Shown one piece after another: positions 1 through 3,000 of a DNA stretch of 13,618 nt. Every line of letters begins with the position of its first letter. The stretch's first letter is position 1. The stretch lies in the IMG/VR virus record IMGVR_UViG_2690316086_000023. One strand, 5' to 3'. Origin of the DNA: a virus (lineage: Duplodnaviria; Heunggongvirae; Uroviricota; Caudoviricetes). The position numbers were made by a program.

Positions 1-3000
1 CTACTGTTCTCCAGATTCTGATAATCCATGGCGAACAATAAGAACACTACAGCCGCTTTGCTGATTAGTTAGCCATAACGGTGAACTTTGCTGGATAGTT
101 TGAGAAATATCATTTCGCCGGAGGCTTATACACTGATTACTCAAGCTTACAACTGCAGGTGCATCAAAGCGCTCCGGACTATCAGTATCACGCATAGCTG
201 TAAACAGAATATAATCACTACCAGCCATATCATATTCCGTTTCTTTTAGTCTTAACAAGCCATCCTCTCTTGTAATATTAACTGTAATTAAAGATGTCTC
301 ATCATGATGGGCATAGCGCTGTGTATTAAGAATTAAATGCTCTTCCAGAAATTTTACAGGGTTACTACGTATTTCATTCATTATACACCGAAGCTCTGAA
401 CGATGCGGCACCAGAAAGTGCCCGGTATTTTGTGAAATAATACTACTTACCTTGATTGTTTTCTCTCCAGCTCATGAAAAATAACTCGCGTATTATATTG
501 TTTTACCAACCACAGGCCCCGAATGCCTGTGGTGTTTTTATATAAATTATCGGAAGTTAATATTGTTTCATTTGAAACATCTTAACTATCTTTTATAATA
601 AAGCTTCCCCTTGCAGGGTCATATTTACACTCTTCTGGTTTAACAATCATTGATGGGGTTATTGGAGCTCGTGTCAGAGGGTGAACTGAACCGTCATTAA
701 CCACGCGAGAAAGTGCATCAACATCAAATAAAGTGCATACTGCTGAACTATCTGAATTTTTGACAAATACCCCTTCTTCTGGTGTTTCCAGTATAATTGG
801 GCATCGAGTTGCATCAGAGGGACACTGGAGGCTCTCTGTATTAACAGAAAACTTACATTGATATATTTTATCCTGAGGAGTCACTTGCGATTGTGTTTCA
901 CCTGCATCTGATCCTGAAAGAATACTTAACATTCTCTCGCCAAGAGCTTGAGGCCCATTATTGAACCCTAAAAGCAATAATTCAGTAAATAATCCCCCAG
1001 TGCCATCGCTGGCCAGAAAGCGCCCATCTGTTGGACTATATTCAATTCTGACAGTTTCACCACCCATTGTAAATTCTCCACGCCCAGTGGCTGCAACTTG
1101 AGCACGAAGAACCTCCATTCCAAGATGGAACGAAGATGAATTAATATCTGAGGTTAATGGCATAATAAAGCTCCCTGTTTTAATTTGAACTCCAGACTTA
1201 AAGGTCCACAACAAATGTCATCCACAAATTTTTCCCTCGTCCCATCAGCACACCGAATTTGCAGCGGCCTCACCACGCACTGTATCGGCTTTTTATCCGC
1301 ACCCAGTATCACCACCTGCGTGATTACCCTGTCCTGCTCCGGAATAATGCCCTATTCGCTTGTTCTCAGAAATTGCCAGCAACCTTACACTACTTCTTTT
1401 GAGCCCATTTTTCGCCAGCCCTGAATACAGGAAAGTGTTAACTGTTTTTATGTTTACCCTCATCTCACTGGCGAGATGGGACGGACGCAACTGACGGTAG
1501 ATATATCCAAACATCACCACCATCTCTGACATCGTCAGTGCCCGTGCTTTTTTGTTCCAGGTCCACAATCTGTTACGCACAGCATTATGTATATCATGTC
1601 CCCCTTTCAACGCTTCCAGATCCAGCTGAATAAAACGGCGTCCCTGAAACATGCTGCGCATTAAATGGCCCAACTGACTATCACAGATTATTAACCAGGA
1701 TTCTTTACTATCCAGAATAACCCTGCGATTTTCCGGCATAAAAAATTCTTGAGCCAGAATTACACGGCATCCTTTCAGTAACAAACGCAAACCATATTCC
1801 AGATAATAATTACGCGTCGCAAGAATGAGCTTCATCGCCCTACTTCCCTGAACTACAGTAGTGTTCCATGCCTCGGTCGCAATCAGAATTTATGATTCCC
1901 CCTCCAGGGAACAAGATGGACACTCCCCTGCTCCTTAAAGGCATCCTTCACTCCATCGTATTAACATGTTTATTACTTCACACTCTAATAACAAACATCC
2001 CCCATACATGACAACAAAAACCGGAGCCGGCCTCCGGTTTTTTGTGAACCCGTCGGCTATTTCATCCCGCCAATATTTTCCCACGTCCCGTCAGCACGCA
2101 GGATTTGCAGCGGTCTTACCACACACTGTATCTGCTTTTTATCTGCATCCAGTATCACCACCTGTGTGATTACCCTGTCCTGCTCCGGAATAATACCATT
2201 CTCATCGGACTCCAGGATGTCTGCCGGCCCCAGTCGCAGTTGTGCTCAAAAAATCTCATAAATAGCGAAAACCCGCGAGGTCGCCGCCCCGTAACCTGTC
2301 GGATCGCCGGAAAGGACCCGTAAAATGATAATAATTATCATCTACATGTCACAACGTGCATCTACGCCATCAAACCACGTCAAATAATCAATTATGACGC
2401 AGGTATCGTATTAATTGATCTGCGTCAACTTAACGTAAAAACAACTTCAGACAATACAAATCAGCGACACTGAATACGGGGCAACCTCATGTCAACGAAG
2501 AACAGAACCCGCAGAACAACAACCCGCAACATCCGCTTTCCTAACCAAATGATTGAACAAATTAACATCGCTCTTGAGCAAAAAGGGTCTGGGAATTTCT
2601 CAGCCTGGGTCATTGAAGCCTGCCGTCGGAGACTAACGTCAGAAAAGAGAGCATATACATCAATCCAAAGTGATGATGGATGAACATCCCGGTTTCTTCC
2701 ACCATCGCACCGGAAAAGCGACTATGAGGGTAACCCTGCGTCTGTCAGCACAGTAAAACCCGGTGTGCATCGTTTTTGATTATTCCCGCACACTCACGCA
2801 GAAGGAATTCCCCGTCGGGCTACGGTCATGGTTAATGCGGGAATACGGCGACGATACAGCGCATAATGTGTCAGGCTTGAATACCTTTATCGAATCCCGG
2901 TAATAAAAACTGTCCCTGTCTCTCCAGACGTTCCAGCTTTGCAAGCAATTGAGGTTTTTTCGTTCTCCCCCAGCGATTGAGCAGACGGCCTGACATGCTG

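Follow-up and report, generated by a model that had tools for sequence, protein, structure and literature searches.

Introduction

Lambda-like prophages carry exchangeable effector loci (EELs), in which effector genes follow the tail-fibre genes and lie next to the attachment site (PMC8112680, PMC3530523). Both prophage-in-prophage and tandem prophage arrangements have been described at effector loci, where they arise by att-mediated integration (Nakamura et al. 2021, PMC8112680), and a second prophage can therefore land beside or inside an EEL. Phage mosaicism has been linked to relaxed homologous recombination and to exchange with defective prophages, and Rad52-like phage recombinases tolerate high divergence of their substrates (De Paepe et al. 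2014, PMC3945230). Experiments on EPclA, a collagen-like tail fibre of EHEC prophages, showed that its C-terminal PfC domain acts as a trimerisation module (Ghosh et al. 2012, PMC3368898), and term searches of that paper found no discussion of a small stand-alone PfC ORF. In attaching-effacing, LEE-positive E. coli, the late operon of lambdoid prophages reads J, lom, collagen-like tail fibre, a small PfC gene that we call tfC, a predicted terminator and EEL. Among the papers on EELs that we covered, a set that does not include the original Tobe 2006 paper, we found no mention of tfC relics, and a literature search joining 'exchangeable effector loci' with 'tail fiber' found nothing.

The effector locus and its repeat pair

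The window analysed here is a stretch of 13,618 nt (IMG/VR record IMGVR_UViG_2690316086_000023) that matches E. coli O103 strain ML775 (NZ_CP193495.1) at 100% identity. It forms the right-hand part of a defective lambdoid prophage adjoining espJ and torT, with the prophage gam, bet and exo genes just outside it. Read on the minus strand, the window runs through ninG, a phosphatase gene, Q, holin, lysozyme, Rz, a Rha-family gene, cos, the repeat region, nleG and hypotheticals. The tail-fibre gene is deleted from the window itself, and the right end of ML775 is the same as that of O121, where strain RM8352 has the order J, lom, 437-aa tail fibre, tfC, regulator, copy A (the nleG-proximal repeat), nleG, further cargo, espJ and torT. 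Cargo in O121 thus sits between the tail fibre/tfC and espJ/torT, a position that matches the published descriptions of EELs (PMC8112680, PMC3530523). The content also agrees, with NleG (PF06416) and EspJ annotated and cargo that varies between prophages.

A repeat search within the window paired positions 1225-1351 (copy A) with 2071-2197 (copy B) as direct repeats of 127 nt, 88% identical and 846 nt apart, and blastn of the window against itself aligned 1215-1351 with 2059-2197 (139 columns, 86.3% identity, one 2-nt gap, 163 bits, E 1e-41). When the window was simulated 100 times with a second-order Markov model, no self-match scored above 31.9 bits, and the repeat pair is real. The intervals given in the original prediction (1234-1350 and 2080-2196) are slightly narrower than the true homology. 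In one frame of the minus strand both copies encode the peptide quoted in that prediction. The parent gene's codons 44-85, 42 in all, can be compared between copies A and B, which differ there by 8 synonymous and 7 nonsynonymous changes (pS 0.27, pN 0.07), and the earlier claim that synonymous changes are at least as frequent as nonsynonymous ones holds. The longest identical run common to both is 29 nt, and each has a GC content of 52%, compared with 42-43% for nleG and the regulator.

Both repeats are 3' ends of the tail-fibre gene tfC

It had been proposed that both copies derive from the 3' end of a coding sequence, and searching for the peptide as the C-terminus of an intact prophage gene recovered just such a gene, a 270-nt, 89-codon ORF that is intact in O121 RM8352 one base after the 437-aa tail-fibre gene. 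The outcome named in that prediction as refuting it, the absence of any intact gene ending in this peptide, therefore does not occur, and the repeats are confirmed as coding in origin. We use tfC as the name for this ORF, which belongs to Pfam family PF06820 ('prophage tail fibre C-terminus', Phage_fiber_C, PfC); residues 28-89 of the 89-aa protein cover the whole PF06820 model (E 5e-36, 123.3 bits against a gathering cut-off of 25), and the protein matches phrog_576 end to end. NCBIfam gave no match for the tfC protein, the regulator or NleG. Both repeats are leftover 3' ends of this gene, a small tail-fibre gene that is common in the lambda-like prophages of pathogenic E. coli.

The original prediction regarded the parent as a lost gene, which is incorrect. 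We fetched 84 intact copies of tfC, comprising 56 DNA alleles and 31 protein variants and none of them disrupted, with a pN/pS of 0.13 overall and 0.09 in the domain, and as a family tfC is a real and selectively maintained gene. Sequence of tfC is found in ~700 of 5426 complete E. coli genomes, at a median of 10-11 places per genome, and a tfC-type gene is present in 296 phage records, while the protein homologues found come from E. coli, E. albertii and Citrobacter rodentium only. In O121, EDL933, UTAK-1 and E2348/69 the gene lies directly 3' of the tail-fibre gene, whose product has the known architecture of PfN, coiled-coil, collagen and PfC, its C-terminus being another PF06820 domain. 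Since the tail fibre already carries this terminal domain, tfC is a second, free-standing PfC, which by eye is only distantly similar to the fibre's own. Both window copies resemble the PfC of EPclA in being fragments of a PF06820 ORF. However, tfC is a PfC-only ORF downstream of the fibre gene and not the C-terminus of the fibre, and the trimerisation reported concerns the fibre's own PfC and not the small ORF (PMC3368898).

We considered whether the pair, as direct repeats in the same orientation at a spacing of 846 nt, arose by local tandem duplication of the tfC 3' end in one prophage, with the regulator inserted afterwards. We disfavour this origin, which is very improbable, as the copies differ at 12-14% of sites and have the high pS given above, whereas the whole block is 99.6-100% identical between serotypes. 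Copy A is also no closer to its neighbour copy B than to unrelated tfC alleles, and the A-type end occurs on a different phage backbone.

Copy B and the ML775 deletion

Copy B (2057-2246, minus strand) is nt 81-270 of the resident tfC and is 100% identical to the O121 RM8352 allele. It encodes exactly residues 28-89, with codons 1-27 missing, and has lost the first 80 nt of the gene together with the start codon and Shine-Dalgarno. As had been noted from the sequence, it is an open frame with no start, open from 2245 to the stop at 2057-2059 and containing no ATG, GTG or TTG before codon 56, and it is a gene fragment and not an intact ORF. PGAP nevertheless calls a 60-aa CDS at 2057-2239, for which the start would have to be CTG judging from the sequence, and this CDS is best read as a truncated gene that lacks a canonical start codon. 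Both copies are named 'phage tail fiber C-terminal domain-containing protein' by PGAP, which lists 1232-1351 as a pseudogene fragment of the same family as copy B. The finding is real yet ordinary, in that RefSeq already annotates both copies as gene fragments.

The conserved 3' flank of tfC (1989-2056, minus strand) comprises a hairpin with a U-run, followed by a ~25-nt box ending GATGTTTGTTA. The GC-rich hairpin, CCGGAG-GCCGG-CTCCGG at 2021-2037, lies just 3' of copy B with the U-run after it, and the two are kept in nearly all tfC loci. Their predicted folding energy is -21.2 kcal/mol over 63 nt (z -1.6) and a consensus scan did not flag them. Copy B would therefore have its own terminator, as originally suggested, in the form of this predicted hairpin and U-run.

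On its other side copy B adjoins a lambda-type left end, of which the first 41 nt are present (2249-2289, within a feature at 2247-2289, minus strand), with two extra nucleotides in between (2247-2248). The cohesive end GGGCGGCGACCT lies at 2278-2289 and, read on the minus strand (2289-2278), is what we take to be the 12-nt cohesive end of lambda. Positions 2249-2700 of the window are 96-99% identical to lambda-like phages; the record of the linear phage 2G7b ends at the equivalent of 2289/2290, a point that is marked as a 'cos site' in the DE3 record. Positions 2246-2249 hold the junction of the deletion with tfC nt 81, where 41 nt of the phage left end are fused to tfC codon 28, and all head and tail genes are gone. 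This cos-tfC junction occurs in one of 5426 complete E. coli genomes, that of O103 ML775, and for the other genomes among the matches listed the full-identity match stops at 2246. Copy B is a resident gene that was cut, and cut in ML775 only.

The regulator ORF between the repeats

The ORF between the repeats (1293-1835, minus strand) has a conserved core of residues 1-155 (1371-1835) and belongs to an E. coli-only, uncharacterised family of unnamed proteins, in which the core ends at residue 155 and the tails vary. The variable 25-codon tail in the window (1293-1370) is, from 1351 downwards, read-through into copy A in another frame. The ORF had been called Psr-like; PsrA and PsrB are AraC/XylS-type regulators (PMC10877973), whereas the ORF has no Pfam match even at E<=10 and yields a NarL/FixJ-like model. 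Profile searching against the PDB gave GerE/LuxR as the best sequence matches, which were weak (E ~0.3). The AlphaFold2 model (mean pLDDT 76, pTM 0.68, with pLDDT <50 at residues 147-180) shows a receiver-like domain and then a LuxR/GerE-type helix-turn-helix, and using Foldseek against the PDB the top 34 matches were all of the NarL/FixJ family, although weak (E 2e-3 to 6e-2, TM 0.25-0.46), with FixJ, RcsB and EvgA as the best fold matches. The predicted fold therefore resembles NarL/FixJ regulators and not AraC/Psr. Two labels at this locus need correcting, namely 'Psr' for the regulator ORF and the 60-aa CDS for copy B.

Copy A and the nleG junction

Copy A (1215-1351, minus strand) is a relic of a second tfC and spans nt 130 to ~262 of the gene. 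It shares 86% identity with copy B, and no more than 92.6% with any of the intact tfC alleles that we fetched. It encodes residues 44 to ~85, with codons 1-43 missing, is frameshifted by a 2-nt deletion near its end and has no stop, as ~66 nt comprising the last codons, stop codon and terminator hairpin are missing. Directly after it come the nleG leader with the Shine-Dalgarno AGGGAG (1164-1214, minus strand) and the NleG-family type III effector gene (582-1163, minus strand; PF06416, E 1e-41), the cargo originally behind copy A. In the EDL933 prophage at ydfJ an intact tfC, terminator hairpin and ~25-nt box are followed by the same leader and nleG start as below copy A, and copy A is this EDL933-type tfC-nleG junction minus the ~66 nt.

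Copy A could alternatively have been kept as an upstream element of nleG, acting as promoter or 5' UTR or allowing read-through from the regulator in the absence of a terminator. What copy A lacks is specifically the terminator, A-type relics always lie directly before the conserved nleG leader with several nleG alleles, and the substitutions in copy A cluster nearest nleG. Despite this we consider such a role improbable, since in EDL933 this leader and nleG follow an intact terminator and no relic is present, and the small deletions differ in other relic classes, as decay predicts. Furthermore, copy A holds no convincing sigma-70 site, the sole nearby match overlapping the nleG start codon; scanning copy A for promoter and terminator consensus sequences was uninformative, and Rfam had no match anywhere in the window.

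The best explanation remains that the copies are scars, and thus have no dedicated function of their own, being backbone-derived islands between low-GC cargo. Two features of copy A count against it. Its substitutions cluster in the last 70 nt, a pattern not predicted by simple uniform decay, and A-type relics are 97.6-100% identical among themselves, which may reflect recent spread or constraint.

Locus states across strains

Comparing the loci of EDL933, UTAK-1, and L053 and O121 provided a natural series of intermediate states, which runs from EDL933 through UTAK-1 to O121 and E2348/69 and ends in ML775. In UTAK-1 a tfC with its full 5' part and an A-type 3' end lies directly after the tail fibre and directly before the nleG leader. 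Relative to L053 this locus is 99.8% identical rightwards of tfC nt 130 and 91.5% identical leftwards, and L053 has an additional segment of tfC-B, terminator and regulator. A comparison across strains for the presence or absence of the regulator cassette had been suggested, and the cassette is indeed present or absent exactly at the edge of copy A. L053 is an IMG/VR contig with a gene order that matches E2348/69. The arrangement of tfC, regulator, relic and nleG is found in 115 complete genomes, and the tfC-regulator-relic block precedes at least three different nleG alleles.

The two repeats very probably represent two generations of one phage gene end, left behind as scars, and from the strain series we infer the following order of events and mode of recombination. 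Initially tfC would have sat directly before nleG, as in EDL933 today. This gene, the future copy A, would then have lost its stop codon and terminator, a state that is seen in UTAK-1. A second phage right end, made up of tail fibre, tfC (copy B), terminator and regulator, would subsequently have been joined to it, with copy A losing its first 129 nt, either through deletion between tandem or nested prophages or through an illegitimate crossover between prophages. Finally, a deletion confined to ML775, with its ends 41 nt past cosN and at tfC nt 81, would have removed the virion block and cut copy B.

Several observations count against this history. The order of events is undated, and no more than 2 of the 5426 genomes show the UTAK-1 state. 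The 5' 129 nt of the UTAK-1 tfC are 99% identical to an ordinary allele, and UTAK-1 could be a later homologous recombinant instead of an ancestor. All sampled copies of the regulator allele of the window are followed by copy A, and the proposed donor, with the regulator as terminal cargo at attR, is represented only by a 60%-identical homologue, which also follows tail-fibre genes at a prophage end.

Relics in other effector loci

Extra partial tfC copies lie downstream in 18 of 80 IMG/VR loci with an intact tfC. Every class of these relics reaches the tfC 3' end, and their 5' ends fall into at least three independent junction classes, at nt ~126-130, at nt ~122-153 (q153/q167) and at nt 199 (q199). 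The q153/q167 class is decayed, being detected by blastn from nt 153 or 167 and possibly extending to ~nt 122. A single 5' breakpoint near nt 122-130 shared by all relics was considered and rejected, given the weak q153/q167 alignment, the unrelated flanks and the clearly different q199. The left junctions are non-homologous and differ between classes, as do the small deletions that the relics carry. The terminator and box are retained in the q153/q167 and q199 relics, which then lead into cargo that is found behind intact tfC in other loci.

The original prediction proposed cassette exchange through recombination between conserved gene ends. This is supported in part, as modular stacking is evident at these loci, but a crossover between copies A and B is unsupported. 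The junctions vary in position and have the look of illegitimate joins or deletions, and a 5'-to-3' linkage gradient is absent. In the broader form of this proposal conserved tfC ends serve as homology arms, and the cassette is gained, lost or exchanged by RecA or Red recombination inside one prophage or from one prophage to another. The copies do offer 88% identity with a 29-nt identical run, the prophage keeps gam, bet and exo, and divergence of this order is tolerated by Rad52-like recombinases (De Paepe et al. 2014, PMC3945230). In addition, the same tfC-regulator-relic block stands before at least three nleG alleles, at least 12 cargo types are carried on nearly identical tail-fibre ends, and the UTAK-1 tfC looks mosaic, its first ~190 nt being ordinary-allele-like and the remainder A-type. 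Against this, a chimeric query for the predicted B-by-A deletion product (tfC nt 1-129, copy A and leader) did not find that product in the 5426 complete genomes; it found only two genomes, hybrids in which the 5' part differs from every sampled B allele at ~10% of sites. Left junctions of relics are non-homologous and class-specific, and linkage of tfC sites to cargo cluster had no 5'-to-3' gradient, with mutual information flat at 0.33-0.76 and upstream clusters too uniform to inform. We hold the use of tfC ends as homology arms to be possible though rather unlikely, and it is compatible with the relic origin as a secondary consequence. The locus shares with the mosaicism of De Paepe et al. 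(PMC3945230) diverged common sequence at module borders and the presence of Red genes, but the junctions beside relics here are non-homologous, and tfC crossover is only a candidate.

Cargo sequences diverge past the box GATGTTTGTTA in most loci, and many cargo types start right past it, as might be expected if the tfC end, hairpin and box formed the recombination site of a site-specific cassette system resembling an integron. Such a system is largely refuted and hardly credible, as there is no recombinase gene at the locus, the sole integrase seen being a decayed prophage integrase, and relic 5' ends differ (~126-130, ~122-153 and 199) with unrelated left junctions. Several 'different' cargo leaders also align as diverged homologues, namely nleG leaders, and the sharp boundary at the box is thus partly shared ancestry. 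For this reason the boundary was rejected as a site-specific signature. A related and more speculative idea, which we think quite unlikely, is that the tfC 3' end, hairpin and ~25-nt box are a maintained 'docking' module that with Red-type recombinases makes an integrase-free, homology-driven cassette array. If this were true, relics including copy A would persist as internal homology arms, and single-gene cassettes could be added, deleted and swapped among at least 10 prophages in one cell.

Orphan C-terminal modules downstream of cdiA or rhs genes have their cargo in the variable C-terminal end itself, with homology provided by a conserved 5' motif. By analogy, tfC relics may be likened to these orphans as older gene ends that have been moved, together with the cargo linked to them, to a place downstream of a full-length resident gene; they would differ in keeping the conserved 3' end and in having a separate gene as cargo.

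Among the 120 best protein clusters, 54 consist of tfC ORFs that lack their 5' part and are fused to sequence from J, K, Lom, CII or collagen, with breakpoints spread over codons 13-46, and deletions ending within tfC are thus common. They presumably end there because, past tfC, no dispensable phage sequence is left before the cargo worth keeping. Fragments of tfC are consequently usable as markers of effector-locus assembly in EHEC and EPEC and of prophage reduction with cargo kept, and a relic census could order acquisition events across STEC lineages, while the current understanding of prophage mosaicism is unchanged by these findings.

The q199 relic of E2348/69 and UTAK-1 lies directly against an integrase pseudogene and ahead of nleH. 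This fits a second prophage collapsed to an integrase fragment, a tfC fragment and an effector locus, and such a second prophage is of the kind described by Nakamura et al. (PMC8112680), who report att-mediated integration rather than later deletions that leave tfC fragments.

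tfC and its partial copies

In E. coli O121 RM8352 (compared locus L002) the tail-fibre gene (8328-9641), whose product ends in a PF06820 domain, is directly followed by tfC (8057-8326), a separate gene that encodes a second PF06820 domain, and the two domains are only distantly similar. The tfC start lies one base past the tail-fibre stop codon and is preceded by GGAG, and the protein has a Cys-rich N-terminus of 27 residues. In the window, copy B, which is the resident tfC truncated at its 5' end, is annotated as a normal gene on the minus strand (2057-2239), encoding a 60-amino acid RefSeq protein (WP_001358682.1). 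This CDS call is doubtful, because the Shine-Dalgarno sequence has been lost and the frame contains no ATG, GTG or TTG ahead of codon 56 (parent-gene numbering).

Fragments of the 3' end of tfC were also found beside a decayed tyrosine integrase gene, in E2348/69 (L091, 7412-8471) and in UTAK-1 (L089, 6981-8041). In both strains a 72-nt tfC relic directly adjoins the integrase remnant and is followed by nleH1-2, an arrangement suggestive of an entire prophage that has shrunk to its two ends within the effector locus of another prophage. In many annotated small proteins (among them the tfC homologues P0024, P0031, P0055, P0063, P0066 and P0085), the tfC C-terminus is fused to a piece of Lom, collagen, CII, J or K, and these chimeras are a record of independent prophage deletions ending inside tfC. 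At one locus (L023, from ~7285; cluster 12), the terminator after tfC is replaced by other sequence directly past the stop codon, and this sequence starts with an apparent IS1 terminal repeat.

Cargo and other genes

Another prophage (L084-L088) carries, at its right end, a homologue with 60% identity to the regulator encoded between copies A and B; the order there is a YadA-like adhesin gene, the regulator homologue, dinI and btsS/btsR-like genes of the chromosome. It thus seems that lambdoid prophages recurrently carry this family as terminal cargo. Within the window, an LpxR-family lipid A deacylase gene (7742-8701, plus strand; 40% GC) is moron-like cargo; it is inserted between the prophage Q and nin regions, on the strand opposite to theirs.

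Further along, a 590-amino acid ORF (11294-13066, plus strand; 35% GC), annotated as hypothetical, gave no match in Pfam and NCBIfam searches and may be an as yet uncharacterised effector or cargo gene. It occupies the expected place of the lambdoid prophage immunity and replication genes, and an IS1203 copy adjoins this region just beyond the window edge. Approximately 300 nt upstream of the ORF there is a perfect tandem array of ~13 AAATAG hexamers (10901-10990; 19% GC), from which spurious minus-strand ORFs (FLFLFL, ISISIS) arise.
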